DNA of 18,236 nucleotides, taken from a virus. Its lineage: Duplodnaviria > Heunggongvirae > Uroviricota > Caudoviricetes. The DNA is taken from positions 1 through 18,236 of the IMG/VR virus record IMGVR_UViG_2695420732_000030; one strand, written 5' to 3'. A program made the translations under genes and the position numbers. The first letter of the stretch is position 1. Every line of letters starts with the position of its first letter. Positions 1 through 14,968 of this stretch are shown here, piece after piece. The notes under the pieces were generated by a model. The model was not told the origin of the DNA, searched no databases, and saw only the letters and a program-made list of their open reading frames with translations.

Positions 1-1236
1 CTATGATAACCGCGCATTCAACATGGCTATCTGTTCGTCGTTCATGTCATCAATCCACATACCGTAAATTTCATACACCATCTGCGCAGTTTCATGCCCC
101 ATTTGGCTGGCTATAAATGCCGGGTTCGCTCCTGCCGTCAACAGCCAGCAGGCAAAAGTATGCCGCGTATGGTACGGATTACGGCGGCGAATACCAGCAC
201 GTTTTACTGCTGCATTCCACCTTGCCCCCAAACTGCTTACCGAGTAATAAGGTTTTTGTTTTCCGTTACACACCCTGGGCATGAAAACAAAATGCAGTTT
301 TTGCTTTTCGGTTCTGCCGTACTCCCGATGATAAAAGGTGATTTCGCTTTTGCGATGATGCCCGGTCAGTTTGTATTGCTCCTTCAGTGCTTCAAGAGCA
401 GGCTGCAGTAGTGTTACTGTCCGGATCCCGGCATTTGTTTTTGGGGGACCGAACATATCAAGTATCGTCAGGTTTCTTCTGACATTCACTATTCCCTTTT
501 CGAGATCCACATCCTCCCACGCCAGAGCTGCCAGTTCCCCGTGACGAAGTCCTGAGTAAACTGCAAATTTCCACATGTTCTGGCTCTGTCCTTTTTCACT
601 TTCCATTAATGCATTGAATTCTGTTTTAGATAACGGATCAGGCTTTATTCTGTTTCGCTGTAATTTTTTTACTCCTTCAAATGGTTTGGTTGATATAAAT
701 CCCGACTGATACGCAAAACGTAACAGCGAACAGAGCAGGGCGATATAGTTATCAACTGTGCGCACGGTTCTTCCTTTTTTGTTGGATCTTGGATTATCCA
801 GGTAAAGCGTTTCTCCATGCAGCAGTTCATTCCGGTAGTTTAAGATATCGCTATAACGAATATGTGATATCAGGGTACTTTCACAAATTATTATTCTGAG
901 TGTTTTTAATTGTGATTTCGTTTTCTTCATTGTGTTTGTTGTTAACTCTGTCTCTTTAATTTTTGTCCAGATATCACAAAGCTCTCCGAACGTTTTTATG
1001 ACTCTCGTTGTCACCATTTTTGCCCCAGTGCTGGACTGGGGAAAACGTCTTAAATACTCAAATTCACCGGAGTTTATTTCATGAACTATCAGCGCTCTTA
1101 AATTTCCGGCCTTTTTAATATTACTGTTTGTAATCTCCCAGCCTTTTAATGTTTCCCGACATCGTTTTCCTCGAAACATGAACCAGATGCGAATGTATCT
1201 ACCTCTAATCTCGACACCTGTTGGTAATTTAGACAT
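1..1236 (-). CDS. intR: Tyrosine recombinase / prophage integrase, 411 aa, complete (stop at 1-3)
   Basis: 411-aa ORF with ATG at 1236; length and position (first gene, followed by xis-ralR-recT-recE) match the Rac integrase. Its start is 1 nt from the xis stop (TGAtATG). Confidence 0.88.
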   Translation of the reverse strand: MSKLPTGVEIRGRYIRIWFMFRGKRCRETLKGWEITNSNIKKAGNLRALIVHEINSGEFEYLRRFPQSSTGAKMVTTRVIKTFGELCDIWTKIKETELTTNTMKKTKSQLKTLRIIICESTLISHIRYSDILNYRNELLHGETLYLDNPRSNKKGRTVRTVDNYIALLCSLLRFAYQSGFISTKPFEGVKKLQRNRIKPDPLSKTEFNALMESEKGQSQNMWKFAVYSGLRHGELAALAWEDVDLEKGIVNVRRNLTILDMFGPPKTNAGIRTVTLLQPALEALKEQYKLTGHHRKSEITFYHREYGRTEKQKLHFVFMPRVCNGKQKPYYSVSSLGARWNAAVKRAGIRRRNPYHTRHTFACWLLTAGANPAFIASQMGHETAQMVYEIYGMWIDDMNDEQIAMLNARLS

Positions 1237-1237
1237 A

Positions 1238-1453
1238 TCATGAGTCTTTGATAAACTGATTTATCTTTGGATAGTTGTACCAGATAATCCCTCGTTTGCT
1301 GTCTGGCTTACCTAAAGGAGATACTCGTTTGAAGTGGAAGCCCTCCACCCAACAGTTCTGGCGGTATGCTTCAATTTGTCTGGCCCCCAGACCAGTGCGA
1401 AGCATCAGGCCGTATTCAACCATCCACTCTTCATTAAAGATTACTTGTGCCAT
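1238..1453 (-). CDS. xisR: Excisionase-like protein (YdaQ/XisR-like), 71 aa
   Basis: Track ORF 1238..1477 trimmed to the internal ATG at 1453, which has a GAGGTGA Shine-Dalgarno 5 nt upstream; product [23 protein letters not shown]... sits immediately upstream of int in the same operon. Confidence 0.72.
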
Positions 1454-1552
1454 CGCATCACCTCTGGCAGGCGCCAATGTTAGACTGAAATTGACGCCCG
1501 ATGTTGATTATTAATAATCAGCTATGAAGTTTTAATTTGAATACAATGCAAT

Positions 1553-1741
1553 TCACGAGGACTGAAGTTTCTCGCAATTAAAATTTATCAGTTTTACTTT
1601 CTGCTCTCTGGAAACGCCTGCTTCTTTTTTACCTGAGAGCATTTTTTCGCATTCTGATTTCGTTAGTTTAGATTTTGAATATCTTGTCCAGTTAGTAGGA
1701 GTGCCACCTTCCTTTTCAATAGTGGCGGTAATTTTATACAT
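1553..1741 (-). CDS. ydaC: Small phage protein, YdaC-like (DUF1187-like), 62 aa from the SD-supported start
   Basis: Track ORF 1553..1813; the internal ATG at 1741 has a perfect GGAGG SD at 5-nt spacing and avoids an 80-nt overlap with ralR. The upstream ATG at 1813 has no SD. Position between xis and ralR as in Rac. Confidence 0.55.
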   Translation of the reverse strand: MYKITATIEKEGGTPTNWTRYSKSKLTKSECEKMLSGKKEAGVSREQKVKLINFNCEKLQSS

Positions 1742-1928
1742 GAACACCTCCGTTATTATTTCCAGTGGTTCGTTTATTCCATCTTTCGAGTGCTTCTTTT
1801 TCACTTCCACCATAACCGGTTCGGGATTCGCATCCGTTACACTTCGCTCGGTAATATCCTGAAATGACTTTCACCGTTACTGATGGACAACCACAAAATG
1901 GACATGGTTTAACATTGTCATATCTCAT
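1734..1928 (-). CDS. ralR: Restriction alleviation protein Lar/RalR, 64 aa
   Basis: Translation MRYDNVKPCPFCGCPSVTVK...RAKCNGCESRTGYGGSEKEALERWNKRTTGNNNGGVHV with CPFCGC/CNGC zinc motif, as recalled for Rac RalR; track ORF trimmed to the ATG at 1928. Confidence 0.8.
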   Translation of the reverse strand: MRYDNVKPCPFCGCPSVTVKVISGYYRAKCNGCESRTGYGGSEKEALERWNKRTTGNNNGGVHV

Positions 1929-1984
1929 AATTTTTCTCATAAAAAATATTTCAAGTTGGCGGTGCATTACACCGCCAGGCTGAA

Positions 1985-2794
1985 TTATTCCTCTGAATTA
2001 TCGATTACACTGTATTCCCCGGTTAATACAGAGGAATCTGCAGGATCGATTGTCAGTGGTTCCTTTTCATCCATTGATACTGCACGCTGGATCTCAATTG
2101 ATACGGGCAGATATTTGAACAGGCGACGAATAGCCGTTTTCTTTGCCATTTCTTCCCAGTGAGTTACCCACGGCCCGTTATTACCAGCTTTACTCAGGCT
2201 GCGCACCAGCTCAATCTGTTTGCGCGTCATAACTTCAAACTGAGTACCTCCGTCTTTCAGTCTTGCGACAGCATAGACGTGGGTAACCGGGGCATCTTCG
2301 TTTTCTCCCGGGCGGTGTATTAACTTTTCATCAAGGCCAAATTCGAAGCTAAACTCGTCACCTTCACGGACAACACGGGCTGACAGGCTGGCGATTTGAC
2401 CAGAACGGCGAGCCAGATCAATCATGCCGCGATAGCCAATGATTAGCTGAACGTTCTTTTTACCGCTCTTTTCGTTTTTATTACCAAAAGGCAGTAAATA
2501 TGCATGACCGAGGGCGCTACCTGGCTCAAGTCCGAGCTGTGAACACTGTACGATCGCACTGACAAAACTCATAGTGTCACAGTTTCCTAACGCCGGAACT
2601 TTACTAATTTCTGTGGTGGCGATACGGATCATACGTTCAGCCGTCATATGGCGTGGAAGAGCTGCTGCCAGTTGCTCTTTCATTGCCGGGCTGTTAATCA
2701 CGCACAGCACATCCTTATCGTTAACTGCTGCTGGTGCACGGTTTCCCTGAGTTTTTTGCAGATCGGCTTTTGCGATAGGTGGTTGCTTAATCAT
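1985..2794 (-). CDS. recT: RecT single-strand annealing recombinase, 269 aa
   Basis: Protein from [24 protein letters not shown]... matches RecT as recalled; ATG at 2794 has an AAGGAG SD 8 nt upstream; the start overlaps the recE stop by 8 nt (ATGATTAA), as known for recE-recT. Confidence 0.92.
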
Positions 2795-5459
2795 TTGCAT
2801 ACTCCTTAGCCCAGCGGGGCAGTGATAACGTCTTAATAGCTGGCCATTCATCGGTATTTAGGCAGTCAGCCAGGGTCCGCAGATTGCGGTGATATTCCTG
2901 CTGGCCTGCCAGTTTTGCTTCTTCGCCCATCATGAAAATCTCAACCGGATAACGTCCGCATTCAACAGTTGTGCTGGCAACCAGAAAAACGAAAGTTGGC
3001 TGCACGCCAAACTGTGCTTCATAACCGTCACTGTAGAATGCATCCTGAACGTGATAGCGGTAGTCGTAATAAGCCGTTTTGAATCGTTGAATATCCGCTG
3101 TGGTTTTCACGTCCATGATCCAGTGAAATTCAGGAATAATTTTGTCCGGACGGCACCGACACAAAATTCCTGTTTCCGGATCTTCCCAGTAAATTGATGA
3201 TTCAGCGTGTCCGGCGCTTTCAACAAGCCATTGCCCCAGCGGCAAAGCCATAACGCTTTGATACATGAGTTCAATTTTCCGGCCTTCTTCCGCAGTGATA
3301 ACCGTTTTTCCTGTGCTTGCGCATTCCATCAGAAACGCTTTCTCTTCTTCTTTTCCGGCGGTTGTACGGCGGTTAAATTCAGGTGCTACGATAAAGCGGT
3401 TACTGAATTCTTCCGGTTCAAGTACCCGGCAGTGGAAAGCGGTTCCTAAATCGAGCGTTTTTGTCTTTGTAGTGTCCACGGGGGCATTTTTACGCCACAA
3501 ATACAGTGCCGGAGTATCAGCAATGTCATCGAGCTGAGACTTACTGACACCGGGACCCGCGTGGTAATTCTCATTCGAAATTCCGTAATAAATACCTGGC
3601 TCTATGTCTTCTACGATTACGGGATCTGCGACTTCGCCAGTTTCATCACTGCAATCGCGATGCGGATCGCTGCCAGCATTCTCATTGTGCGGATGTTCAG
3701 CGCCTTCCATTTCCTCCGGATCTTTTTCCTTAGCTTCAACCTGATTCTCTTCACCGAATGTTTCCTGGTATGTTGCGTCGCCCATCACCGCGCCACAATC
3801 AGGGCAGTTGCCGCCACCGCTCTGACCGCAGGCGGTGCAGACTTTTTCCGGTTCCTGTTGCGCTACTGGTTCGGATTGTTTCGTTTCTGGCTCGTTTTGT
3901 AACGCATTTGGGCTGTTTTGTTCCGCTTTTTGGTCGTTCCGTTCCGATTCATGCTGGTTCTGGTTCACAGAATCGCGAGTCTGGATCCCCTTGACCCATT
4001 TCGGATCATTAGGGTCGCTAATCCCCTCAACAAATTCACCACGCGATACAGCAAGTAACTTATCGGCGTCAGGCTGGCTGATATTGGCTGCCTGCATAAT
4101 TTTGTTTACTTCGTCAGCGGTGACTTTTACTTGGTTAGCGGAACTCACCTGCGACTGAGCATCCAGCGACTGCGCGTTCTGGCCATGTTCAGTTGTATCC
4201 GGTTCCATTGTTTCAGTTGTTGCCTGTTCACCTGCCATTGCGTCAGATGGTTGTGGTTTTTCTTCTTCTGTTTCACGCTCAGTAACCACCTCGCGGTTAA
4301 TTTCTTCCAGGATATCTTTTTCCGGTGTATGCCGGGCAGCTGTGAGAGTTTCCTTGCTGGGGTTCTCGTGATCAGTTTCCGTCAAATAGGCGTTGATATA
4401 CCCCTGAAGGCGTCCCGGGTAGTGATAAAATTCAGGGTGTGCGCTTCGGATAAGTGCAAAAATAGCGGCGCGGGAATAGTCCAGAATACCCGGGGTTGCA
4501 CGAAGTGCTGCGGACCATTCTTTGAACGGACTTTCTTTGTTCAGGACTACTTCTTTTGCGCGACGATAAACGCTGCCCGGAATTTCATAAATATTAAAAT
4601 CCATCGGAAGTGTGGCTGCTGCAATCTCCACATCCAGTGTGTCGAGGGTGTGTACTAAATTCGGATTGCGATCGGTTTTGTTCCCACCGCCAGCATTAGC
4701 ACCGGAAGCCGTGCGGGTGATGCGTGAAACACGATTTCCTTTCATCCACTCTTTTGTCAGCAGACCCCGATAAGTGTAGTCAGCGTCCAGGTATGCTTCG
4801 AAAAAAGCAGTTATTAGTCCCAGGTCTGAATTACCAGGATTAGGGAAAACTTTGTCAGTGTCACGAACCAGTTTGTGGAGGTCGCGAATCTCCAGCGAGT
4901 CGAGCAGACTGGTTTTATGCGAAATAGCCAGGGCAGTAACAGCCGGTAGTTCTTCAGCCCGTGCAATGTGTAATGCCTGGAGTTCGTCGCGTGAAACGTG
5001 CGTTACTGGTTTTTCGCTGCCGTGTTGAGCAAGCCAACGAATGGGCAGTTCCTGACCGGAGACAGGCAGAAGCATGCTCTCCTCAATCTCAGTCATGTCT
5101 TCGCCGTTGATGTTGGTATTGTCAGTGCTGGCTGGTTTATCCTGAACAGAGGGTGACGGGGCGATAAATACCATTGTGATGCCATCCTCCCCGCCTTTTT
5201 CGTATCGGTTGCAGAATTCCGTATCAAATACGCCTTCTGGTGGGAGGTCATCAACAACGGGCAAATTGACGCGAACAGGTTTTTTAAAGTCATCTTCATC
5301 GTAGCCAGCATCGTCAATCGCAACAGCACCACGGGAGATGGCAATGGATAATTTTTTCGCTTCAGCCCAGTAAAAACCGCCTTTAATACCGAGACGTTTT
5401 CTTACTTTGTCATTTTTGGCTTCGTAATACAGTGGGAAAACTTGTTTATCGGTGCTCAT
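2787..5459 (-). CDS. recE: Exodeoxyribonuclease VIII (RecE), 890 aa variant
   Basis: C-terminal ~280 aa ([24 protein letters not shown]...[12 protein letters not shown]...) resemble the RecE PD-(D/E)XK nuclease domain; N-terminal and central acidic linker as recalled for RecE but divergent and longer than the K-12 form (recalled as 866 aa); ATG at 5459. Confidence 0.9.
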
Positions 5460-5527
5460 TGTTTTTTAACCTCAACTCAGATTAAAATTATTGCGAGTGA
5501 TGAATAAATGTCCCGGGTTCTTGACTC

Positions 5528-5555
5528 AGGCCTGCGCTGAGTGCAGGCCTTTTTC
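5528..5555 (+). terminator. GC-rich hairpin (AGGCCTGC-N7-GCAGGCCT) followed by TTTTT on the plus strand, between racC and recE
   Basis: Perfect 8-bp stem at 5528-5535/5543-5550 and T-run 5551-5554. The U-tract is on the plus strand only, so it would terminate transcription antisense to the recET operon. Confidence 0.3.
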
Positions 5556-5559
5556 CCAT

Positions 5560-5835
5560 TCAGATTTCGCCTTTTTGTTCCATCTCAATCAGAGTTGCCA
5601 TAATCCTGTCTTTTTTCTCTGCTGGAATATTCTTTATGATGTGCACCATGCACATTTTTTTTACACCTTCGTGAAGTGTTTTAACGTTGCCTGATGGACC
5701 GTCGATATCAACCACGGTGAATGGGGTTTCTTTATTTTCTGTTTTAATCACGTAGCCAATGAGTTTTCCTTCCAGGATAACTTCGTGAACAACGTCATCA
5801 GTAGTAACAACAGTGGCTTCATAACTGGTAATCAT
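5560..5835 (-). CDS. racC: RacC-like protein, 91 aa
   Basis: Translation from MITSYEATVVTTDD... matches RacC as recalled; track ORF trimmed to ATG at 5835 with an AAGGAG SD at 6-nt spacing. Confidence 0.8.
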   Translation of the reverse strand: MITSYEATVVTTDDVVHEVILEGKLIGYVIKTENKETPFTVVDIDGPSGNVKTLHEGVKKMCMVHIIKNIPAEKKDRIMATLIEMEQKGEI

Positions 5836-5909
5836 GTTTTTCTCCTTAATTAAGGTTGAGCGAATCCCTGCCATTGCTGGCATAAATTCAGTTTCGGATA
5901 GTCAGTTAA

Positions 5910-6080
5910 TTAAAGTTCGTGTGCCATCTGGTCTTTTTCGGCACAGATTTCACTACAATATTTTTTCATTTCCGTCGTTGGTATAACTCCACGCATGAAA
6001 TGAAGTGGTCTTGTAATGATTTTGCTTTCTTCAATTTCTTTATTGCAAAGGTGATAAGCACATTTTATTTTCTTAGTCAT
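5910..6080 (-). CDS. ydaE: YdaE-like small Cys-rich (zinc-binding) protein, 56 aa; not in the ORF track
   Basis: Hand translation of the minus strand from ATG 6080: [56 protein letters not shown]. The ATG overlaps the kilR stop (TAATG). Position between racC and kilR as in Rac. Confidence 0.65.
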   Translation of the reverse strand: MTKKIKCAYHLCNKEIEESKIITRPLHFMRGVIPTTEMKKYCSEICAEKDQMAHEL

Positions 6081-6301
6081 TACCATGACTCCGCCTTTAC
6101 AGGTAAACCATCACGACCGAGGAAGACTCTAATCATGCAGTCAGAAATGCATGTTTTTGTAGTCAGGCTACGAATATAAAGTTTTCGCTTTTTAATATTG
6201 TTTGCCGAGGCGATATATGTCCGACCTTCATGAAGAACATAATCGCCAGGAGTCACACACTGACGTGGTATTTCATCAGTTCCGAAGTGATGAGCAATCA
6301 T
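6080..6301 (-). CDS. kilR: KilR, FtsZ-targeting cell-division inhibitor of Rac, 73 aa
   Basis: Translation [46 protein letters not shown]... matches KilR as recalled; ATG at 6301 has a GGAG SD 7 nt upstream; track ORF trimmed by 4 codons. Confidence 0.8.
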
Positions 6302-6465
6302 AATTATCTCCATTTTTACAAATGAATTTTGTCGATGCGGTGCCTGGTGCCTCCAGGTGACGTTAACCAGTTAACAATTAACGCCGGATAATCCACCCAT
6401 AACACTGATGCTTTTAACTGTGCCGCGTGCGCTTAGCCGCATTCACCGCATCACAAAATTCACTT

Positions 6466-6512
6466 TAAAAAGGCGGACATCAGTCGAACTTCAAGAAAAA
6501 ACTGATGCCGCC
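6466..6512 (-). terminator. Candidate intrinsic terminator on the minus strand (12-bp interrupted stem, then UUUUUAAAG)
   Basis: GGCGGaCATCAGT (6472-6484) pairs with ACTGATGCCGCC (6501-6512) around a 16-nt loop; on the minus strand the T-run corresponds to A 6467-6471. Lies ~180 nt downstream of the minus ORF ending at 6692 and upstream of kilR. Confidence 0.35.
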
Positions 6513-6691
6513 AAGACTACACACAGCAGTGTTGTTAGTCACAACCGGAGGCGCACTCCCACCATTTAAATTTAACAGACAAGACCGACTCTTTATGGAT
6601 ATCGGAAATGCGCCTTCGTGTTGTGCCCGGTTTTATTTCACCACCTCCGGGCTTCGGTGGTTTTCGTTATTCCCCAACAGCGAAAATTAGG

Positions 6692-7042
6692 TTAATCTGA
6701 ATATCCCCCAACAGATGGAAGGATTTTTCTATGCTCGAAAATCAGACCTTGAAGGTTGCCTGCCCTGATTGCGGCAGTGAGATGCTCAAGCGGCCCGATG
6801 ATTTTGACTTTGACACTAATTTCGTTGGCGTTAGTTGTGCCGAATGTGGTCGAGAAATCACTAAGGACGATGTTATTAAGCAAGGAAAAAATGTAGTTCA
6901 GAAACAAGTCAATGACATGCTCCGGAACACCCTCAAAGGCAGCGGGTGGAAGTTTAAATAACCCATGTATCGCACTAAAGTGTTCCGTTACTTCTGTAGC
7001 GTCTATGGTAAGTTTGATAGGCGCTATTTTCACTCCCGTCAT
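6692..7042 (-). CDS. Hypothetical protein, 116 aa, at the position where K-12 Rac carries sieB; fully antisense-overlaps the plus ORF 6731..6961
   Basis: ATG at 7042 with GAGGTGA SD 5-6 nt upstream; near-consensus sigma70 promoter ~70 nt upstream on the same strand (7119-7147); candidate terminator downstream (6466-6512). No recognisable family. Confidence 0.42.
   Translation of the reverse strand: MTGVKIAPIKLTIDATEVTEHFSAIHGLFKLPPAAFEGVPEHVIDLFLNYIFSLLNNIVLSDFSTTFGTTNANEISVKVKIIGPLEHLTAAIRAGNLQGLIFEHRKILPSVGGYSD
6731..6961 (+). CDS. Hypothetical zinc-ribbon protein, 76 aa (CPDCG-x22-CAECG)
   Basis: ATG at 6731 with AAGGA SD; two CxxC pairs 22 residues apart; about 70% purine at codon position 1. 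Lies entirely inside the antisense ORF 6692..7042, so one of the two may be a shadow frame. Confidence 0.45.
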   Translation: MLENQTLKVACPDCGSEMLKRPDDFDFDTNFVGVSCAECGREITKDDVIKQGKNVVQKQVNDMLRNTLKGSGWKFK

Positions 7043-7118
7043 ACATCACCTCAAATCTTTTCCCTTAACGCCGGGTGGCGGAACTAAAACCTACAGCGCC
7101 GTGCTGTTCTCGATAGAA

Positions 7119-7147
7119 ATATTAGTGACACGTATATTTTAAGTCAA
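7119..7147 (-). promoter_or_regulatory. Near-consensus sigma70 promoter on the minus strand: -35 TTGACT, 17-bp spacer, -10 TAATAT (PL-like position)
   Basis: Reverse complement of 7119-7147 reads TTGACT-N17-TAATAT; sits between the repressor-gene terminator and the 116-aa minus ORF, pointing toward the kilR-recET-int operon. Confidence 0.5.
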
Positions 7148-7243
7148 CAGCAAGGCGTATTATATTTTTGATTTTGTAACTATGTAAATGTTTTTCAAGG
7201 GAAAAATATTAGTTATACAGCTGATTTGCAGAAGTTATGGCAC

Positions 7244-7277
7244 AAAAAAAACCGACTAAGACGTCGGTTTTTTTTTG
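7244..7277. terminator. Bidirectional intrinsic terminator (A8-CCGAC-loop-GTCGG-T9)
   Basis: AAAAAAAACCGACtaagacGTCGGTTTTTTTTT; 25 nt downstream of the repressor stop (7303) on the minus strand and downstream of the 6731..6961 plus ORF. Confidence 0.7.
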
Positions 7278-7302
7278 TTGTGGGTGGGGTAGTGAGCGGT
7301 GG

Positions 7303-7764
7303 CTACTGGTTACGTTTCTTTAGTGCCAGCATGTTCTCGAAGGCTTCCTCGTAGAGCTTGTTTAGTCCACGTAGCTGGTTAAGGAGTTTGGCTTTTTCTG
7401 ACGCAGGTAGAATCTCGAAGAGGTTAAGTAACTCTGCCTGTTCTTCATTGACCAGCCTCCATCCTTTGCCTGAAAAGCTATCATCATAAGTATCTGATGA
7501 TCTTACATAATTCATTAAGTCTTTAAGGTCTTCTCGAATGTCCTCTGGTTTTACCTTTAACAGAGCCGCAAATTTTAGCGCAGCGTCGGTATTTACCGGT
7601 ATCTTGCCGTTCAGATACTGGCTAACGGTGCCTTGAGATTCGAATCCCAACAACTCAGCCGCCAACTCTTGAGTCAGCTTCAGCTCTTTTTTTCTTGCAT
7701 TCCATGCGGCTTTTAAATTCTTGCTCGCTTCTGGAGTTGCAATCACTTCGCGTGTTTTTTTCAT
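7303..7764 (-). CDS. Prophage repressor, HTH XRE/cI-type (RacR-like), 153 aa, no S24 peptidase domain
   Basis: HTH motif LTQELAAELLGFESQGTVSQYLNGK; divergently transcribed from a Cro-like gene; the acidic/helical C-terminal half lacks the Ser-Lys autocleavage module. Confidence 0.8.
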   Translation of the reverse strand: MKKTREVIATPEASKNLKAAWNARKKELKLTQELAAELLGFESQGTVSQYLNGKIPVNTDAALKFAALLKVKPEDIREDLKDLMNYVRSSDTYDDSFSGKGWRLVNEEQAELLNLFEILPASEKAKLLNQLRGLNKLYEEAFENMLALKKRNQ

Positions 7765-7800
7765 ACATAGAGTTTATTTGTTTTACCAATATTATCAAAG

Positions 7801-7841
7801 ATAGTCTGACTATTGATCTTTAAAATTAGTAGGGCTAATAT
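7801..7841 (+). promoter_or_regulatory. PR-like promoter (-35 TTGATC 7813-7818, 17-bp spacer, -10 TAATAT 7836-7841) overlapped by the perfect palindrome ATAGTCTGACTAT (7801-7813), a candidate operator
   Basis: Read directly from the sequence in the 107-bp divergent intergenic region between the repressor and Cro-like genes. Confidence 0.5.
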
Positions 7842-7871
7842 TTGCTCGAGGCATAACGTAGAAGGTTGGCT

Positions 7872-8147
7872 ATGAACTTAAGAGACTATTTAAAAGAGAA
7901 ACATATCACCCAGCTACAGTTTGGGAAGCTAACGGGTTTATCTCAGGTGCATGTAAGTCGAGTGCTGGGGGGCTATGAAAGATTCAGCCCTGAAAAAGCA
8001 TTACGTGTTGCTGAAGTAACGAATTTCGAGGTTACACCTCATGAACTCCGGCCTGATATCTACCCGAATCCAACCGACGGTTTACCTGTTGGATGTAAGG
8101 CTAACACACAAAATACACAGGAGTTGATTCATGAAAATCAGGCATGA
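7872..8147 (+). CDS. Cro/YdaS-like HTH DNA-binding protein, 91 aa
   Basis: HTH ITQLQFGKLTGLSQVHVSRVLGG; ATG at 7872 with AAGG SD (track start 7866 is a TTG); first gene rightward of the repressor; its stop overlaps the next gene's start (ATGA). Confidence 0.7.
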   Translation: MNLRDYLKEKHITQLQFGKLTGLSQVHVSRVLGGYERFSPEKALRVAEVTNFEVTPHELRPDIYPNPTDGLPVGCKANTQNTQELIHENQA

Positions 8148-8553
8148 GCACATCGAATCGGTGCTGTTAGCCCTGGCAGCTGAAAAAGGGCAGGCATGGG
8201 TAGCCAGTGCAATTACTGAAGAATATCTGCGCCAGGGAGGCGGCGAATTGCCCCTGGTACCAGGCAAGGACTGGAATAATCAGCAGAACATCTATCACCG
8301 TTGGTTAAAAGGTGAAACGAAAGCGCAAAGGGAAAAAATTCAGAAACTGATCCCTGCGGTTCTGGCAATTCTTCCGCGCGAGCTGCGTCACCGACTCTGC
8401 ATCTTCGATACCCTGGAACGCCGTGCATTACTGGCGGCGCAGGAAGCGTTGAGTACGGCAATTGATGCGCATGATGATGCAGTCCAGGCCGTTTACCGGA
8501 AAGCACATTTCAGCGGTGGTGGGTCGCCCGGCGATTCTGTCGTAGTGCATTGA
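8131..8553 (+). CDS. ydaT: YdaT-like protein (toxic when derepressed in Rac), 140 aa
   Basis: 140 aa starting MKIRHEHIESVLLALAAEKGQ..., same length and position as Rac YdaT as recalled; AGGAG SD at 7-nt spacing. Confidence 0.65.
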   Translation: MKIRHEHIESVLLALAAEKGQAWVASAITEEYLRQGGGELPLVPGKDWNNQQNIYHRWLKGETKAQREKIQKLIPAVLAILPRELRHRLCIFDTLERRALLAAQEALSTAIDAHDDAVQAVYRKAHFSGGGSPGDSVVVH

Positions 8554-8597
8554 TTGAAATTAATCGTGCCGGATTGTTTTGTTCGGTATCAGTTAAA

Positions 8598-8618
8598 TGT
8601 AACGCTGCGAGCGTTACA
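8598..8618. repeat. Palindrome TGTAACGCT-GCG-AGCGTTACA, copy 1 of 3, 13 nt upstream of the O-like gene start
   Basis: Perfect inverted repeat read directly; the same half-site TGTAACGC/GCGTTACA recurs at 8790-8810 and 8998-9016. Confidence 0.6.
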
Positions 8619-8630
8619 AGGTGAAAACAA

Positions 8631-9425
8631 ATGGCTTCAAACTGGATAAAGCTCGAGGTTATTACGCCGGATAAGCCGGAAATATTCAGGCTTGCTGAGA
8701 TTCTGAATATTGATCCAGATGCCGCATTAGGGAAGGTTATTCGCTTCTGGGCATGGGCGGATCAACAAATGATAGACGGTAATGCAGATTGTAACGCTCG
8801 CGGCGTTACAAAAAGTGCAATAGATCGCATCACTTTTATGGCTGGTTTTGCTGATGCGTTAATTCAGGTTGGATGGCTGGTCGAAAATGACGGTGGGCTT
8901 TCTCTACCTAACTTTGAACGTCATAACGGGAAAAGCTCTAAAAAACGGGCGGTTACAAACGAGCGAGTTACAAAAATACGCGAACTGAAACGAAAAGGTA
9001 ACGCTGGCAGCGTTACACAAACGGATCAAAAAGCGTTACCAGAGGAAGAGGAAGAGGAAGAGGAAGATATAAATACTGATCTCCCCCTAAATCCCCCTCG
9101 CCAAAAACGAGCGTCTAAAAAATTCGAGCCGGAGGCTATCGAGCTACCTGACTGGTTGCCGGAAACACTCTGGCATGAGTGGGTTCAGTTCAGGCAGGCA
9201 TTGCGAAAACCGATTCGAACGGAGCAGGGCGCTAACGGGGCGATACGGGAACTGGAAAAATTCCGTCAGCAGGGTTTTACACCTGAGCAGGTGATTCGAC
9301 ACAGCATCGCCAATGAATACCAGGGCTTGTTCGTACCGAAAGGTGTTCGGCATGAGACGTTGCTCCGACAGGTTAACACCGTCTCGTTGCCGGACAGTGC
9401 GATCCCGCCAGGCTTCAGGGGGTAA
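8631..9425 (+). CDS. ydaU: Replication initiation O-like / YdaU-like protein (DUF1376-like), 264 aa, with internal poly-Glu
   Basis: Position immediately upstream of the DnaC-like gene; AAGGTGA SD; palindromic repeats embedded in the coding sequence, as for ori within lambda O; the (GAGGAA)4 tract at 9042-9065 encodes the poly-Glu run. Confidence 0.7.
   Translation: MASNWIKLEVITPDKPEIFRLAEILNIDPDAALGKVIRFWAWADQQMIDGNADCNARGVTKSAIDRITFMAGFADALIQVGWLVENDGGLSLPNFERHNGKSSKKRAVTNERVTKIRELKRKGNAGSVTQTDQKALPEEEEEEEEDINTDLPLNPPRQKRASKKFEPEAIELPDWLPETLWHEWVQFRQALRKPIRTEQGANGAIRELEKFRQQGFTPEQVIRHSIANEYQGLFVPKGVRHETLLRQVNTVSLPDSAIPPGFRG
8790..8810. repeat. Palindrome TGTAACGC-TCGCG-GCGTTACA, copy 2, inside the O-like CDS
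   Basis: Perfect 8-bp arms with a 5-bp spacer; direct GTTACAAA repeats follow at 8952-8959 and 8967-8974. Confidence 0.6.
8998..9016. repeat. Palindrome GTAACGC-TGGCA-GCGTTAC, copy 3, inside the O-like CDS; extra half-site GCGTTAC at 9033-9039
   Basis: Read directly; same half-site as copies 1 and 2, at ~200-bp spacing. Confidence 0.55.
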
Positions 9426-9431
9426 CAGACC

Positions 9432-10172
9432 ATGAAAAATATTGCGACAGGCGGCGTTCTGGAGCGTATCCGCAGACTGACCCCACCACATGTAACCGCC
9501 CCATTCAGAACGGTTGCGGAGTGGCGTGAGTGGCAACTTACTGAAGGCCAGAAACGTTGCGAGGAGATCAACCGTCTGAATCGTCAGTTGCGGGTGGAAA
9601 AAATTCTGAATCGCTCTGGCATCCAGCCGTTGCACCGTAAATGCTCGTTTGCGAATTACCAGGTGCAGAACGACGGCCAGCGATACGCGTTAAGCCAGGC
9701 GAAATCCATCGCCGATGAACTGATGACCGGGTATACAAATTTTGCGTTCAGCGGAAAACCTGGTACCGGGAAGAATCACTTAGCGGCAGCTATCGGGAAT
9801 CGCCTGTTGAAAGACGGTCAGACAGTGATTGTGGTTACCGTGGCTGATGTTATGAGCGCCCTGCACGCCAGCTATGACGACGGGCAGTCAGGCGAAAAAT
9901 TTTTGCGTGAACTGTGCGAAGTGGACCTCCTGGTTCTTGACGAAATTGGCATCCAGCGTGAGACGAAAAACGAGCAGGTGGTACTGCACCAGATTGTTGA
10001 CCGCCGGACGGCATCACTGCGCAGTGTCGGGATGCTGACAAACCTGAATCATGCCGCAATGAGCACGCTTCTTGGTGAGAGGATTATGGACCGGATGACC
10101 ATGAACGGTGGTCGTTGGGTGAATTTTAACTGGGAGAGCTGGCGGTCAAACGTTGGACGTCAGGGTATGTGA
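9432..10172 (+). CDS. ydaV: DnaC/IstB-like AAA+ helicase loader (YdaV-like replication protein P analogue), 246 aa
   Basis: Walker A GKPGTGKNHLAAAIG and Walker B DLLVLDEIG; start 7 nt after the O-like stop. Confidence 0.85.
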   Translation: MKNIATGGVLERIRRLTPPHVTAPFRTVAEWREWQLTEGQKRCEEINRLNRQLRVEKILNRSGIQPLHRKCSFANYQVQNDGQRYALSQAKSIADELMTGYTNFAFSGKPGTGKNHLAAAIGNRLLKDGQTVIVVTVADVMSALHASYDDGQSGEKFLRELCEVDLLVLDEIGIQRETKNEQVVLHQIVDRRTASLRSVGMLTNLNHAAMSTLLGERIMDRMTMNGGRWVNFNWESWRSNVGRQGM

Positions 10173-10197
10173 GAATTTTTAACGAGGTGAATTTTCG

Positions 10198-10968
10198 ATG
10201 GAAACCGTATTACATGCACTGAAAGCGATGGGAAAAGCCAATTCTGTTGAACTGGCGGCACGAATTGATATCAGCCGTGAAGAAGTTATCAACGAACTGT
10301 GGGAGCTCAAAAAAAATGGCGTTGTTGATAAAACGGGTCACACCTGGTTTCTGGCTGTCGAAGGTGAATCCCGGGTAACCGAAGAGCGGCCAGTAAAATC
10401 TGAAACACAGGATATGCTGACCGAAGAGGTCGCTCCAAAAGTTAGCGCTAACATGATGATTGAGTTTATCGCTCAGGAGGGGGCTAAAACCTGTGAAGAA
10501 ATAGCGGGTAAGTTCGGTGTCAGTACTCGCAAGGTTGCTTCCACGCTGGCGGTGGTAACCGCAACGGGGCGGCTGGCACGCGTTAATCAGAACGGTAGAT
10601 TTCGTTACTGCATGCCGGGCGATAATTTACCAGCAGAGCCGAAAGCCGCGCTGGTAACGGAAAGTGATGGTAAGGCCTTTCCTCAGCCAGCAGGTGCTGC
10701 GTTACCAGTCCGGGAAGCCGCAACACAGGAAGAAATTAAAACAGAAACTGTGGCGGACATTGTGCAGCCGTTGCCATCGTTTACCGAAACGCAAGCAGAT
10801 GAGCTGATTTTTCCGTCCCTTCGCAGGGCAAACCTGGCGCTGCGCAGGGCGAAAAGTGATGTTCAGAAGTGGGAGCGAGTCTGCGCCGCGCTGCGGGAGC
10901 TGAACAAGCACCGGGATATTGTTCGGCAGATTGTCGATTCATCCGGTCGTATTGTGTCGGAAAAGTGA
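10198..10968 (+). CDS. Hypothetical phage protein (YdaW/DUF1627-like), 256 aa
   Basis: GAGGTGA SD 7 nt upstream of ATG; position after the DnaC-like gene as in Rac; family assignment is by recollection only. Confidence 0.6.
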   Translation: METVLHALKAMGKANSVELAARIDISREEVINELWELKKNGVVDKTGHTWFLAVEGESRVTEERPVKSETQDMLTEEVAPKVSANMMIEFIAQEGAKTCEEIAGKFGVSTRKVASTLAVVTATGRLARVNQNGRFRYCMPGDNLPAEPKAALVTESDGKAFPQPAGAALPVREAATQEEIKTETVADIVQPLPSFTETQADELIFPSLRRANLALRRAKSDVQKWERVCAALRELNKHRDIVRQIVDSSGRIVSEK

Positions 10969-10983
10969 TTGCCGGAGGCGCTT

Positions 10984-11376
10984 ATGGCAAAAGTATTTAC
11001 ACCAGAAGAGCGGGAAGAAGTGAGGGCGCGCATTGTGGAATTCGTGCGCCTGAGCGGACGAGAAACTTTTCGACAACTGGCAGATAAAACGGGTGTCAGT
11101 AAGACCGCTATTCGTCGTTTATCTGGTGCGCTTGCGGCCAGTGGTGATGTCTGGCTCTCTGGTTGCGGGGTATTTCTATCAGAGCAGGCGTATCGCGTAT
11201 GGCGTAAGACACCGGAGAAGGCTGCTGACCCGACACTGATTCGAAAGTTACCTGACGGAGAAATACGTCGTTACAACAGACGGCAGAACATAATTTGTCG
11301 TGAGTGCCGCCAGAGCGAAGTTATGCAGCGTGTGCTGGCGTTCTATCGGGGTAATTTTCAGGAGGTGATGGAGTGA
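10984..11376 (+). CDS. Hypothetical protein, 130 aa, with CRECRQ motif
   Basis: ATG at 10984 with GGAGG SD at 5-nt spacing (track start 10969 is a TTG); stop overlaps the next start (GTGA). Confidence 0.6.
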   Translation: MAKVFTPEEREEVRARIVEFVRLSGRETFRQLADKTGVSKTAIRRLSGALAASGDVWLSGCGVFLSEQAYRVWRKTPEKAADPTLIRKLPDGEIRRYNRRQNIICRECRQSEVMQRVLAFYRGNFQEVME

Positions 11377-11669
11377 GGGTGAGGGTTTATATCGCCGGTC
11401 CGATGACCGGGTATAAAAATTTCAACCGTGAGGCGTTCCACAAGGCGGAAGAGGAACTGAAACGGGAAGGGCATACAGTCTTAAACCCGGCAGTACTTCC
11501 GGACGGGCTGACACAGCCGCACTACATGGATATTTGCATGGCAATGATTCGTTGCGTGGATGCGATTTACATGCTGAATGGCTGGCAGCGGTCAGCGGGC
11601 GCTAAGGCAGAGCTGGCACTGGCGGAGAAACTGGGACATACGGTGATTTATCAGGAGGTGGCTCAATGA
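11373..11669 (+). CDS. DUF4406 / nucleoside 2-deoxyribosyltransferase-like small protein, 98 aa
   Basis: N-terminal VYIAGPMTG motif typical of this fold; GTG start with GGAGG SD at 7 nt; stop overlaps the next ATG (ATGA). Confidence 0.6.
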   Translation: MRVRVYIAGPMTGYKNFNREAFHKAEEELKREGHTVLNPAVLPDGLTQPHYMDICMAMIRCVDAIYMLNGWQRSAGAKAELALAEKLGHTVIYQEVAQ

Positions 11670-12385
11670 GAGAGGTTAACTATGAGGCGCTTCGTGAAGC
11701 AGCAGAGAAAGCAACTAAAGGATGCTACATCGTAGGGCATACATCGGGCAATCAGCATGGGAATATAACAGGAGTTTTTGTTTGTCAAAAATGGAAAGGA
11801 GAACCCGGTGGCGTAATTGCAGAATGTCATGTTAACTGCCTGGTTGAAACAGATGCTCAGGCTTACGCAAACGCTGAATTTATTGCTGCCTTTAATCCAA
11901 ATGTTGCGCTGGCACTACTGGATGAACGGGAAAGAAACCAGCAATACATCAAATCACGCGACCAGGAGAACGAGGAGATTGCGCTTACGGAAGGGAAGCT
12001 GCTAATCGAAAACGGCCGGCTTGTTGCCGATACGCTACGCCACTTAGCTGATAACGAAATCGACTCTGATTATTTTGCTATCACCTCAACGAATGAGAAC
12101 GGTACTGAAATTGATCATGAGATGGCTATTACCGATTACGCACTGCAAGCTGCCGGAACTGTAGACGAATTGGTTGCGGCGTTGGAATCCGCAGAGAAGC
12201 GCATTGCAGAACTGGAAGCACGGGAAATATCGCTCCCAGAACGTAGCAGCATGCTTCATCGAACAGATTTTCACGATGATTACCAAACGGTAATGGCATA
12301 CAAAGTTTCTGAAGTCATCGCTGCAATCCGCGCCGCTGGCATTCGCATCAAAGGAGAGGAGCATGGAAATAAAACCAGAAGATGA
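11666..12385 (+). CDS. Hypothetical phage protein, 239 aa (possibly Ea22-like, acidic coiled-coil C-terminus)
   Basis: ATG overlapping the upstream stop; no motif confidently recognised. Confidence 0.6.
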   Translation: MREVNYEALREAAEKATKGCYIVGHTSGNQHGNITGVFVCQKWKGEPGGVIAECHVNCLVETDAQAYANAEFIAAFNPNVALALLDERERNQQYIKSRDQENEEIALTEGKLLIENGRLVADTLRHLADNEIDSDYFAITSTNENGTEIDHEMAITDYALQAAGTVDELVAALESAEKRIAELEAREISLPERSSMLHRTDFHDDYQTVMAYKVSEVIAAIRAAGIRIKGEEHGNKTRR

Positions 12386-12719
12386 GTTAAGCAATATCGT
12401 TTTATTTCCGGTAAAAGAGGATGACCCACGTAATCAGGTTAATTTTCTCTATGAGCCATCGGAAAGACCATATTGCCATCACGCCTCTGTCCGGGTTGAC
12501 GAAAAAGAGCGTCAGGTCCGCTGTAAAATCTGCGGTGCAGTTGTGGAGCCATTTGACTGGATGCTCTCTGTGGCGAAAAGAGAAACCAGACTGGCAGATG
12601 ATGTAAGGATCTTGCGCCAGGAGGAACGGGAAAGGCGGAGAAATATAGAAAAGCTAATTCAGATTGAGCGTAACGTGAAAGCGCGGATACGCAGGGTGAC
12701 AAAATCCAGAACTGAATAA
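12363..12719 (+). CDS. Hypothetical protein, 118 aa, with CHH...CKIC cluster and Arg-rich coiled-coil tail
   Basis: ATG at 12363 with AGGAGAGGAG SD; overlaps the upstream gene by 23 nt. Confidence 0.55.
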   Translation: MEIKPEDELSNIVLFPVKEDDPRNQVNFLYEPSERPYCHHASVRVDEKERQVRCKICGAVVEPFDWMLSVAKRETRLADDVRILRQEERERRRNIEKLIQIERNVKARIRRVTKSRTE

Positions 12720-12767
12720 TTAAATTTAGCTCTGTTAAAAATTTAATCCTTAACCGGAGGTATATCA

Positions 12768-12980
12768 ATGTCAAACGCACAGAAAGTTATTAACGCTGAA
12801 AAATATAACGAGTGGGTGAAAAAGTTCTCAGAGCAGATTTTTAAAATTACTGGCGACGAGAATGCGGCAAAAAATGAATTAGAGCCGTGGACACCTGAAG
12901 GTGTCGACCCAAATTATTGCTGGTGGGATGTTGATCCAGTTGATGCTGCAAATGAAGCTATGAGTTATCACAACGATTAA
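12768..12980 (+). CDS. Hypothetical small acidic protein, 70 aa
   Basis: GGAGG SD 8 nt upstream of ATG 12768. Confidence 0.55.
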   Translation: MSNAQKVINAEKYNEWVKKFSEQIFKITGDENAAKNELEPWTPEGVDPNYCWWDVDPVDAANEAMSYHND

Positions 12981-13180
12981 TGTCAGGAGGCCGCCCGAAA
13001 GGGCGGTAATGAAAAGTGACTGAATTAACCAAAGAGAAATTAATCGAAGAAGCCAAATTAAAAATAGCGATTGCGAAATGCTACCCCAATTCAGGGATGG
13101 CACGGGTATAGGGCGAGTTATTCAAAATTGCACTGGCATAGCTGGAAGCAGATCCAGTTAAACGAGTTAACTCAGATCAG

Positions 13181-13894
13181 ATGCACCGAGTCTGCTTAGA
13201 AGCTAATCGCTATTTAGATAAATATGACGCGATGGCGAAAGAGGTAAATAAGTTGCTTGGACGCATCGCCCCGCCAGCGCCAGTATTTAACGGCGAATAC
13301 GGTGACGCATATCAGGGCGCTCGTGAAGACCTGTCCATCTGGAAACGGCGAGCGCTTGAAGCTGATGAGCACGTTCGGCGACTGGAGCAAATCAATGACC
13401 ACATGGTGAAAGAGGCGCAGGGAGAATCACGCATGGGCGAGCCTGTAATACGTGAGCCAGCACCGGTAGTGCCTGAAGAAGCAACTCCGGAAAACGTAGA
13501 AATGCTCTCTGGCTATGTTTCAACGTACAAATTAACCGATAGCGAGCGCGATATTGCTGCCGAAATATGGAACGCCTGCCGCGCCGCCATGCTTCAGGCT
13601 GGAAACTTTCGGGAAAATAAGGGTTCGTCAACCAATAATTTTCGGGAAATCTCGGAAACGTCAACCAACTATCCGGTAACTCCGGATGGTTGGATAAGCT
13701 GTAGTGAGCGAATGCCGGATGATGGTCAGCACGTAATTATTTTATGTGATGGCGCATTCGTTCTTTATGCGCAATATCGAGACGGTGAGTTTTTTGATGT
13801 AGTCCGTAATGGTGATGAATTTTTCGAAACACAGAGCCGCAATGTAACCGACTGGATGCCGCTACCAGAACCGCCGCAGGAGGTGCGCCAATGA
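13181..13894 (+). CDS. Phage protein with C-terminal DUF551-like domain, 237 aa
   Basis: C-terminus WISCSERMPDDGQHVIIL...VTDWMPLPEPP resembles the DUF551 signature as recalled; weak SD. Confidence 0.6.
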   Translation: MHRVCLEANRYLDKYDAMAKEVNKLLGRIAPPAPVFNGEYGDAYQGAREDLSIWKRRALEADEHVRRLEQINDHMVKEAQGESRMGEPVIREPAPVVPEEATPENVEMLSGYVSTYKLTDSERDIAAEIWNACRAAMLQAGNFRENKGSSTNNFREISETSTNYPVTPDGWISCSERMPDDGQHVIILCDGAFVLYAQYRDGEFFDVVRNGDEFFETQSRNVTDWMPLPEPPQEVRQ

Positions 13895-13974
13895 TCTGGC
13901 CTGAAGCCTTTGCAATTACAGGCGTTGCTATAGCTATTGATTTTTTAGTATATGTTATTTGTCGGTGGGGGTAA
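13891..13974 (+). CDS. Tiny hydrophobic peptide, 27 aa (MIWPEAFAITGVAIAIDFLVYVICRWG), candidate membrane peptide; not in ORF track
   Basis: GGAGG SD 7 nt upstream; ATG overlaps the upstream stop (ATGA), suggesting translational coupling; single hydrophobic helix. Confidence 0.4.
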   Translation: MIWPEAFAITGVAIAIDFLVYVICRWG

Positions 13975-14009
13975 AAACGTTCGCCGGGATTCACACCAAA
14001 GGAGGGAAT

Positions 14010-14114
14010 ATGTCGGATGATATTTCACTGGCAATGGAAGGTGCGCTGGCTGTTATTGCTGTTGTGGGCGTTTACTGCCTGGTTGTGTTTTTGATGGATC
14101 GACTAGGGAACTGA
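14010..14114 (+). CDS. Tiny hydrophobic peptide, 34 aa (MSDDISLAMEGALAVIAVVGVYCLVVFLMDRLGN); not in ORF track
   Basis: GGAGGG SD 4 nt upstream of ATG 14010; single predicted transmembrane helix. Confidence 0.4.
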   Translation: MSDDISLAMEGALAVIAVVGVYCLVVFLMDRLGN

Positions 14115-14122
14115 ATTCATTA

Positions 14123-14144
14123 CGATATGGGAATTCCCATATCG
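14123..14144. repeat. Perfect 22-bp palindrome CGATATGGGAATTCCCATATCG
   Basis: Exact two-fold symmetry centred on GAATTC, 9 nt after the second small-peptide stop and upstream of the putative hok promoter. Confidence 0.6.
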
Positions 14145-14156
14145 GGTAAAAACGGT

Positions 14157-14184
14157 TTGCGGTAAAGCGAGAGTTAAGTAGAAT
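14157..14184 (+). promoter_or_regulatory. Candidate hok mRNA promoter (-35 TTGCGG, 16-bp spacer, -10 TAGAAT)
   Basis: Places the TSS near 14191, giving a ~420-nt transcript ending at the 14584-14610 terminator. The 5' end GGGTGCTTGAGG (14191-14202) is complementary to 14566-14577 near the 3' end, as in hok fold-back mRNAs. Confidence 0.35.
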
Positions 14185-14359
14185 TGCTGCGGGTGCTTGA
14201 GGCTATCTGTCTCGGGCATGAACACCAACGGCAGATAGAGAAAAGCCCCAGTTAACATTACGCGTCCGGCAAGACGCTTAACATTAATCTGAGGCCATAT
14301 CTATGCTCTACATACGTAGGTTAGCCTCTTACGTGCCGAAAGGCAAGGAGAAGCAGGCT

Positions 14360-14515
14360 ATGAAGCAGCAAAAGGCGATGCTAATCGCCCTGATCGTCAT
14401 CTGTTTAACCGTCATTGTGACGGCACTGGTAACGAGGAAAGACCTCTGCGAGGTACGAATCCGAACCGGCCAGACGGAGGTCACTGTCTTCACAGCTTAC
14501 GAACCTGAGGAGTAA
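14360..14515 (+). CDS. Hok/Gef-family type I toxin, 51 aa
   Basis: MKQQKAMLIALIVICLTVIVTALVTRKDLCEVRIRTGQTEVTVFTAYEPEE shows the Hok signature (TM helix, RKxLCE, AYE); AAGGAG SD; track ORF 14303..14515 trimmed to ATG 14360. Confidence 0.8.
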   Translation: MKQQKAMLIALIVICLTVIVTALVTRKDLCEVRIRTGQTEVTVFTAYEPEE

Positions 14516-14583
14516 GAGACCAGGCGAGGGAGAAATCCCTCGCCACCTCTCATGTGTCAGGCATCTTCAACGCACCCGCACTT

Positions 14584-14610
14584 AACCCGCTTCGGCGGGT
14601 TTTTGTTTTT
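14584..14610 (+). terminator. Intrinsic terminator after hok (AACCCGC-TTCG-GCGGGTT then TTTTGTTTTT)
   Basis: GC stem with TTCG tetraloop and T-run, read directly. Confidence 0.75.
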
Positions 14611-14735
14611 ATTTTCAATACGTTTGAAGTTATGGACGATGCCGGAATAGAATCAAAAATACTTAAGTAGCGCGCAGGGAGAAGAGGGATGGACCCCGAA
14701 CAGGGGGGTGCTATTTATCTGGAAGGATTCTGTTG

Positions 14736-14909
14736 ATGAAAATTGAAGAATTACGTGAAATTTTTAGTGAAAATGGCCTCTTTGCTGTGCGCGTTGAGAA
14801 TGGGGAAGTTATCTACGCAACGTTAATCCCTGATAATCATGTAATTTTATCTATCGAGGCATTCATTGAATATCTTGAAAGGCTCGGTTTCAAGGTGATT
14901 CGGGAATGA
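14736..14909 (+). CDS. Hypothetical small protein, 57 aa (MKIEELREIFSENGLFAVRVENGEVIYATLIPDNHVILSIEAFIEYLERLGFKVIRE); not in ORF track
   Basis: GGAAGGA SD 8 nt upstream of ATG 14736; hand-translated. Confidence 0.4.
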   Translation: MKIEELREIFSENGLFAVRVENGEVIYATLIPDNHVILSIEAFIEYLERLGFKVIRE

Positions 14910-14968
14910 GTTATAATTCGTAAGCCAGCCTGAACAACTGGCAACCTACAGCGCCATTGGAGACAGCA

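Follow-up and report, generated by a model that had tools for sequence, protein, structure and literature searches.

With its operators OL, the early leftward promoter of phage lambda, PL, is separated from PR by the repressor gene and lies within the immunity region, near the left boundary of that region. It has three operator positions and drives genes for recombination, kil, xis and int. The mRNA of lambda cI is leaderless. In the classical definition of a lambdoid immunity region, PL and its operators must lie just inside the left boundary.

A leftward promoter of this kind has been characterized in CP-933P, a cryptic lambdoid prophage of E. coli O157:H7, where PL has three operators and the same hexamers as PR, a PL reporter fusion is repressed ~100-fold by PaaR2 and by YdaS, and the paaR2 transcript was shown to be leaderless (PMC8630535). 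For the Rac prophage of E. coli K-12, the RacR operator consensus is WTAGGC-N3-GCCTAW (PMC9638921), and ydaG, ydaF, kilR, racC, recE, xisR and intR go up 40-100-fold on RacR depletion (PMC6765115; PMC11014345; bioRxiv 10.64898/2026.09.06.749655). In the searchable literature we found no description of a PL of Rac between racR and ydaG, only transcriptome data. We observe that the RacR operator pattern matches five times in 5 kb of K-12 MG1655 Rac, with three matches at OR and two that bracket a minus-strand TTGACA-N17-TATAGT between racR and ydaG. Judged from these letters, positions 3127-3168 of that locus (L004 in our numbering) evidently represent the PL/OL of K-12 Rac.

Layout of the prophage and its immunity module

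The window, that is, the whole 18,236-nt stretch analysed here (positions 1 to 18,236 of IMG/VR record IMGVR_UViG_2695420732_000030), is a Rac-family lambdoid prophage of E. coli, and the same gene order is found in E. coli genomes that carry close relatives and in phage Rac-SA53 (Table 1). The early-left genes kilR, ydaE, recE, recT, the xis-like ORF and int all lie on the minus strand, between positions 1 and 6301, downstream of the promoter candidate considered below. Homologues of the 153-aa repressor, with 58-99% identity, occur in the same gene arrangement, and a Pfam search found no LexA/S24-type cleavage domain in this repressor. Runs of A and T flank the terminator behind the repressor gene on either side.

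Table 1. Coordinates of the genes, promoter candidates, operator candidates and transcript features in the window.
Feature	Position	Strand	Basis or remark
int	1-1236	-	NCBIfam tyrosine recombinase match
xis-like ORF	1238-1477	-	gene order as in relatives
recT	1985-2851	-	NCBIfam RecT, 453 bits
recE	2787-5459	-	NCBIfam exonuclease VIII, 1643 bits
ydaE	5910-6086	-	NCBIfam YdaE, 87.5 bits
kilR	6080-6301	-	NCBIfam KilR, 159.5 bits
116-aa ORF of the preliminary description	6692-7042	-	coding status doubtful; no NCBIfam match
76-aa ECs_2282-family CxxC zinc-binding gene	6731-6961	+	NCBIfam ECs_2282_CxxC, 81.6 bits (cut-off 37)
Leader of the putative PL transcript	7055-7118	-	7088-7118 specific to the immunity type; 7055-7087 common to K-12 Rac
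Predicted start of candidate PL	7110-7114	-	placed by the usual distance from the -10
Candidate PL, -10 TAATAT	7119-7124	-	sequence; part of the 9-mer CTAATATTT (7117-7125)
Candidate OL1, TTAGT-GAC-ACGTA	7122-7134		PWM rank 239/18,224; one good half-site only
Candidate PL, -35 TTGACT	7142-7147	-	sequence
Candidate OL2, ACAGC-AAG-GCGTA	7147-7159		PWM rank 274; weak
Distal promoter-like site, TTTACA-N18-TATAAT	7159-7188	-	11/12, best sigma-70 match in the window
Candidate OL3, ATTTT-GTA-ACTAT	7171-7183		PWM rank 31/18,224, found without reference to register
Third copy of CTAATATTT	7204-7212	-	no usable -35
Bidirectional intrinsic terminator after the repressor gene	7244-7275		13-nt arms AAAAAAAACCGAC and GTCGGTTTTTTTT, 100% complementary, 6-nt loop
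153-aa CI-like HTH repressor	7303-7764	-	Pfam HTH_3, 1.1e-09
OR region	7765-7871		PR, PRM candidate and three 13-mer sites
PRM candidate, TTGATA-N16-TAAACT	7798-7793 (-35), 7776-7771 (-10)	-	sequence
OR 13-mer sites, form WTAGY-N3-RCTAW	7826-7838, 7801-7813, 7777-7789		PWM ranks 2, 1 and 10
PR, TTGATC-N17-TAATAT	7813-7818 (-35), 7836-7841 (-10)	+	reads into ydaS
ydaS (Cro-like)	7872-8147	+	Pfam YdaS_toxin and HTH_3; RefSeq annotation of relatives
ydaT	8131-8553	+	divergent from the repressor gene, like ydaS

A blastn search against K-12 Rac yields only three homologous stretches in this region, 6021-6683, 7055-7087 and 8125-8551, and the K-12 repressor RacR is unrelated to the 153-aa repressor. 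Because the homology with this heteroimmune prophage ends at 7087 and resumes at 8125, we define 7088-8124 as the immunity-specific block. Besides the repressor gene with its terminator, the block comprises the two promoter candidates, the divergent intergenic region and ydaS, which is the last gene of the heteroimmune module. The leftward promoter candidate lies ~25 bp inside the left edge of the block.

We also looked for sites of the CII-like protein YdaT, whose published site is TTGATTN6AATCAA. A TTGATT-N6-AATCAG sequence, with one mismatch, occurs at 8124-8141 at the ydaS/ydaT junction, a PRE-like place, and the same sequence occurs at 1504-1521, directly upstream of the xis-like ORF, where it overlaps a minus-strand promoter-like site (1535..1507) in a PI-like place. 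The pattern gives four matches in the window against 1.7 expected, which is weak statistical support, and a YdaT box at the promoter candidate was rejected, all four matches lying elsewhere.

A conserved leftward promoter candidate

The site TTGACT-N17-TAATAT on the minus strand would be, in the reading to which we give a probability of about 0.75, the early leftward promoter (a PL analogue) of the immunity module of this Rac-family lambdoid prophage. The preliminary description had given this sequence for 7147..7119, and the window has exactly these letters, with a spacer of 17 bp. It had also placed the site just beyond the repressor-gene terminator, and, read leftward, it follows the 7244-7275 inverted repeat at a distance of ~97 bp. 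The PL-like position proposed at that stage is well supported by the module boundary, by the conservation of the position in relatives, by a -10 context shared with PR, and by the precedents of K-12 Rac and CP-933P. To call the site near-consensus or close to ideal, on the other hand, was an overstatement, as the consensus match is only 9/12 (5/6 in the -35 and 4/6 in the -10). Sites with at least 9/12 matches number 28 in the window against 22.8 +/- 5.7 in shuffled sequence; the bare motif match is no more than chance and carries no weight alone, and we rejected it as evidence. The support for the candidate comes from its context and not from the motif match alone.

Transcription usually starts 5-9 nt downstream of the -10 hexamer, and in relatives an A is located 7 nt past it. 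The surroundings of the candidate are ~74% A+T. On the plus strand, a promoter-like TCGATA-N17-TATATT at 7110-7138, with TTGATA in most E. coli variants, stands face to face with the candidate PL and could yield an RNA of ~135 nt ending at the bidirectional terminator; weak plus-strand Rfam matches near 7110-7275 appear to be driven by the terminator.

We fetched loci from Enterobacter, Hafnia, Serratia and metagenomes whose repressors are 92, 74, 71, 69, 68, 68, 63 and 58% identical to the 153-aa protein. All of these loci keep the same gene arrangement, and each has a TTG(A)NN-N17-TAATAT-like site at the candidate-PL position downstream of the repressor gene; among relatives carrying an equivalent promoter site, repressor identity spans 58-100%. 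The equivalent sites are fixed at 31-41 nt upstream of a conserved leader motif, in surrounding DNA that is only ~59% identical. Position and spacing are the same in 15/15 sequences (14 relatives and the window), and 13 of these score at least 8/12, the sites of L007 and L008 reaching only 7/12. A TTG(A)-type -35 hexamer stands at the same place in ten relatives, and the -10 is TAATAT in eight of ten family members, always 17 bp from the -35, with TTATAT in L011 and TATTAT in L009.

The immunity type is present in ~3% of complete E. coli genomes (179/5,426). In an alignment of six E. coli variants of this type with the Enterobacter locus L013 (alignment A6), the candidate PL hexamers are invariant at 11 of 12 positions, including all six -10 columns, and the -35 of L013 is TTGACA. 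The six E. coli variants agree at every hexamer base, although their flanks differ, and in A6 there is variation immediately upstream of the -35 and in parts of the spacer. The OL/PL segment 7088-7302 shows 90-95% identity in 175/180 E. coli carriers, and three relatives aligned over 7055-8300 are 97-99% identical across the whole stretch.

A second site competes for the role of leftward promoter, namely the distal TTTACA-N18-TATAAT located 40 bp upstream of the candidate PL, and the main leftward promoter might be this one, the proximal site being secondary or inactive. The distal site is the top sigma-70 match of the window, at 11/12 with a perfect -10; it also falls within the immunity-specific block, is overlapped by candidate OL2 and candidate OL3, and keeps a score of 8-11/12 across the E. 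coli variants. Nevertheless, only 4/12 of its hexamer positions are invariant in A6, and its -10 becomes TATTAT, CATAAT, TATCAT or CATCAT in other E. coli variants. The site is missing in Enterobacter L013, which encodes a repressor of 92% identity with the same recognition helix, and in all of the more distant relatives. Moreover, its spacer is 18 bp long, and nothing at PR corresponds to it; the -10 context that recurs at PR is that of the proximal site. Because the proximal hexamers are kept at 11/12 positions and the distal ones at only 4/12, the TTGACT-N17-TAATAT site, and not the distal one, is by its pattern of conservation the conserved promoter of the family. The distal site was rejected as a conserved family PL and retained as a rival for this particular prophage, in which it could be the main start, an alternative that we consider unlikely. 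It may instead serve PL as A/T-rich upstream DNA, or be a secondary promoter specific to this lineage; its A/T-rich sequence covers about -40 to -75 of PL, with TCAAAAATATAAT at about -47 to -59, and might work in the manner of an UP element.

Likeness to PR and candidate operators

The three 13-mer sites of OR have centres 25 and 24 bp apart. The predicted start of the PRM candidate is the A of the repressor ATG (7764), which has no Shine-Dalgarno sequence, and the repressor mRNA is probably leaderless.

The 9-mer CTAATATTT that includes the -10 of the candidate PL has only three copies in the 18 kb, all oriented with early transcription: those of the two -10 elements, of PL and PR, and one at 7204-7212. 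The third copy lies 87 bp upstream of the PL -10, within a 30-nt direct repeat (7102-7131 and 7189-7218), and is invariant in the E. coli variants and L013 despite diverged flanks. An ungapped comparison of the OR segment 7765-7850 (86 bp) with all 86-mers of either strand put first, self excluded (rank 1/36,301), the register that aligns the -10 hexamers of PL and PR, with 41/86 identical positions, a score that is only narrowly above the next ones (40 and 39) and that includes the hexamers that set the register.

Across the family, the spacers of PL and PR co-vary, the within-phage identities summing to 85 against 71.5 +/- 5.5 when permuted (exact P = 0.003 over eight phages). The two spacers are identical at 13/17 positions in L007 and L015, and at 12/17 in L011 and L017. 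In the window alone they agree at 8/17, no better than cross-phage pairs. The recognition helix of the repressor is QGTVSQY here, QS[STA]VSHY in L007, L014, L016 and L017, QATVSHY in L011 and QASVSHY in L009, and these differences between subgroups go in step with different spacer sequences.

Operator-like sequences at 18,224 positions were ranked with a weight matrix, for which the OR sites of this phage and of the relative with the 92% identical repressor served as input. The earlier reader had seen no obvious copy of the 7801-7813 palindrome over the candidate PL, and indeed the matrix gives no strong match in 7088-7242; we rejected a complete OR-type palindrome at PL, the best rank in the PL region being 31/18,224. 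Three weaker 13-mers can nevertheless be placed in an operator model that was partly derived after inspection of the data. Candidate OL1 overlaps the -10 and the spacer of PL in a register identical to that of the OR site 7826-7838, candidate OL2 abuts the -35 of PL by 1 nt, as the palindrome 7801-7813 abuts the -35 of PR, and candidate OL3 coincides with the place that the OR site 7777-7789 takes once the -10 hexamers of PL and PR are superposed. The centres of these weak 13-mers are 25 and 24 bp apart, which is the OR spacing. Candidate OL1 keeps its ACTAA arm unchanged in the E. coli variants, but not its centre, where two of three bases differ, or its second arm, which has changes at two positions, A/C at one and, in a single variant, T/C at the other. 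Substitutions in the few aligned variants cluster around the candidate operators.

From these sequence comparisons we conclude that the family probably has a PL/OL built like PR/OR, with operators that appear degenerate in this member, and that control by the repressor is likely. The preliminary description had left repressor control unclear; the weak operator-like 13-mers in OR register and the co-varying family spacers now speak for it, while repression in this particular prophage is what we infer. In the preferred reading, sigma-70 RNA polymerase would use TTGACT and TAATAT with their 17-bp spacer and start at about 7110-7114 on the minus strand. In a lysogen, the 153-aa CI-like repressor would probably keep PL off by binding degenerate operators laid out as at OR, of which the first would overlap the -10 and spacer, the second touch the -35 and the third lie farther upstream, and this binding would possibly be aided by cooperation with OR, 704 bp away.

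A different arrangement would be that the PL of this immunity type is not shut off by ordinary promoter-overlapping operators, of which only half-sites are seen. It could be controlled through long-range cooperation with OR at 704 bp together with the conserved extra CTAATATTT copy at 7204-7212, or after initiation, the invariant leader (ACGGCGCTGTAGGTT..GTTCCGCCACCCGGCG, 7064-7104) governing kil-recET-xis-int. This leader segment is common to heteroimmune Rac-like and Klebsiella phages and has no nut, put or Rfam match. We regard such an arrangement as distinctly unlikely.

The candidate could also be a functional promoter outside repressor control, constitutive or otherwise regulated, that serves the small genes after it (ydaG and ydaF in relatives) as a unit of the lysogenic-conversion type. 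Such a unit would fit the lack of a convincing OR-like operator over the candidate PL, the PL spacer of this phage, whose likeness to the PR spacer is at chance level, and the gene cassette directly downstream, which is exchangeable, as morons often are. However, the candidate PL belongs to the immunity-specific block and not to the exchangeable cassette, the K-12 equivalent is bracketed by two RacR operators with ydaG and ydaF silent until RacR drops, and the PL spacer is nearly a copy of the PR spacer in L007, L015, L011 and L017 (12-13/17). In addition, unrepressed reading into kilR, which encodes an FtsZ inhibitor, would be harmful unless terminated. We give this explanation little chance of being right. 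It is very improbable that the site is a chance match in A/T-rich intergenic DNA with no promoter function, as the ordinary number of 9/12 matches and the ~74% A+T of the region might suggest, given hexamers that are invariant while neighbouring bases vary, the same spacing and position in relatives down to 58% repressor identity, and a CTAATATTT context common to PL and PR and confined to three sites in the window.

Transcript path and comparison with known systems

From the candidate PL, the transcript would run through the conserved leader, antisense across the convergent zinc-binding gene, through the DicF-like RNA region, and then through kilR, ydaE, recE, recT, xis and int. The start at the candidate PL, the repressor control and the extension of the transcript to int are all inferred.

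In relatives, the 33 bp of the leader that are common to K-12 run up to the ribosome-binding site and start codon of ydaG. The leader is invariant among the E. coli variants and recognizable in all relatives and in a heteroimmune Klebsiella phage; over 7055-7108 (minus strand), and also in L005 and L007-L017, an invariant primary sequence, ACAGCACGGCGCTGTAGGTTTTAGTTCCGCCACCCGGCGTTAAGG, is observed. Searches downstream of the candidate PL revealed neither an N gene nor a nut site, nor any put-like RNA. Rfam gave no match on the minus strand of 7040-7118, and only the sub-threshold plus-strand matches IS128 and FuFi-1 touch this region. The consensus fold of the leader is weak (-2.1 kcal/mol, 8 pairs), its single-sequence fold is no better than that of shuffles (MFE z = +1.26), and a comparison with the annotated putL-like RNA of HK639 revealed no significant similarity. 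A put-like or nut-like RNA in the leader was rejected on these Rfam, fold and HK639 putL comparisons. An early terminator made of the hairpin 7093-7107 followed by AGGTTTTAGT was likewise discarded, as its 5-bp stem is weak and the U-run is missing in distant relatives.

Beyond the leader, a 367-bp segment (6688-7054) replaces the ydaG-ydaF cassette of relatives. It contains two overlapping ORFs, of which the 76-aa one has two CxxC pairs and is convergent with PL. Identities to the Klebsiella phage and to HK639 are, respectively, 78% and 71% for the plus-frame protein, 57% and 52% for the minus-frame translation, and 77% and 74% for the DNA. The substitutions in the overlap fall on the third position of the plus frame, and the minus-frame pattern is non-coding, while in the first 27 minus-frame codons of the 116-aa ORF, which lie outside the overlap, the changes are mildly biased to the third position. 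The records of HK639 and of the Klebsiella phage annotate the antisense (minus) ORF, of ~102-115 aa; this annotation looks like a mis-call. To treat the 116-aa ORF as a pure shadow ORF is not fully justified, given the bias in its first 27 codons. Because two phage records annotate the minus strand and these codons are third-position-biased, we consider the 116-aa ORF, on its substitution pattern, doubtful rather than false. The promoter had been described as pointing at the 116-aa ORF and at kilR-recET-xis-int. The operon genes do lie downstream on the minus strand, but the place of first gene probably does not belong to the 116-aa ORF, for which the support is poorer than for the plus-strand 76-aa ORF. 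The PL transcript would run against a convergent gene, whichever ORF is real, and in K-12 Rac the leftward path is likewise opposed by a convergent gene, sieB.

Two minus-strand RNA matches, both below the Rfam thresholds, lie on this path upstream of kilR. One is DicF-like (6471-6525, 41.4 bits against a gathering score of 48, E = 4.8e-07) and the other is to STnc100 (6294-6484, 41.1 bits against 47). In K-12 Rac, this region carries the annotation of the small RNA KilS.

The promoter would be the switch location for KilR, a cell-division inhibitor, for the RecET recombinase and for excision of a Rac-type prophage, and its position is useful for annotation and for engineering or inducing such prophages. 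The degenerate candidate operators and the invariant leader are of mild interest.

The locus resembles lambda in the position of the candidate PL inside the immunity region, in its three operator positions, here candidates, and in the kinds of genes downstream. It differs from lambda in having no recognizable N gene, nut site or put-like RNA downstream of PL, in a repressor without a LexA/S24-type cleavage domain, in the convergent gene that lies in the path of the transcript, and in candidate operators that are much weaker copies of OR than those of lambda.

With K-12 Rac, the locus shares the order repressor, terminator region, promoter, ydaG, ydaF, kilR and recET, as well as the last 33 bp of the leader. 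In K-12, one operator ends 1 nt into the -35 and a second overlaps the -10, with centres 25 bp apart, an arrangement like the one proposed here. In contrast, RacR and its operator are unrelated in sequence to the repressor and operators of this phage, the K-12 operators are near-perfect copies of those at OR, the K-12 promoter is nearer to consensus (11/12), and its leader is ~100 nt longer.

CP-933P differs in that its repressor PaaR2 is another protein, followed by a toxin-antitoxin pair, and in that its operators are GTTTAGTAA-type repeats with clear OR copies at PL, whereas those proposed here are degenerate. Nevertheless, both have a leftward promoter beyond the repressor operon of a ydaS/ydaT-type immunity region, operator repeats at PL that resemble OR, here only as weak candidates, hexamers that repeat those of PR, and a leaderless repressor transcript, which is predicted here and was shown for paaR2. 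The locus introduces no new principle; the same layout is experimentally established in CP-933P and can be read in K-12 Rac.
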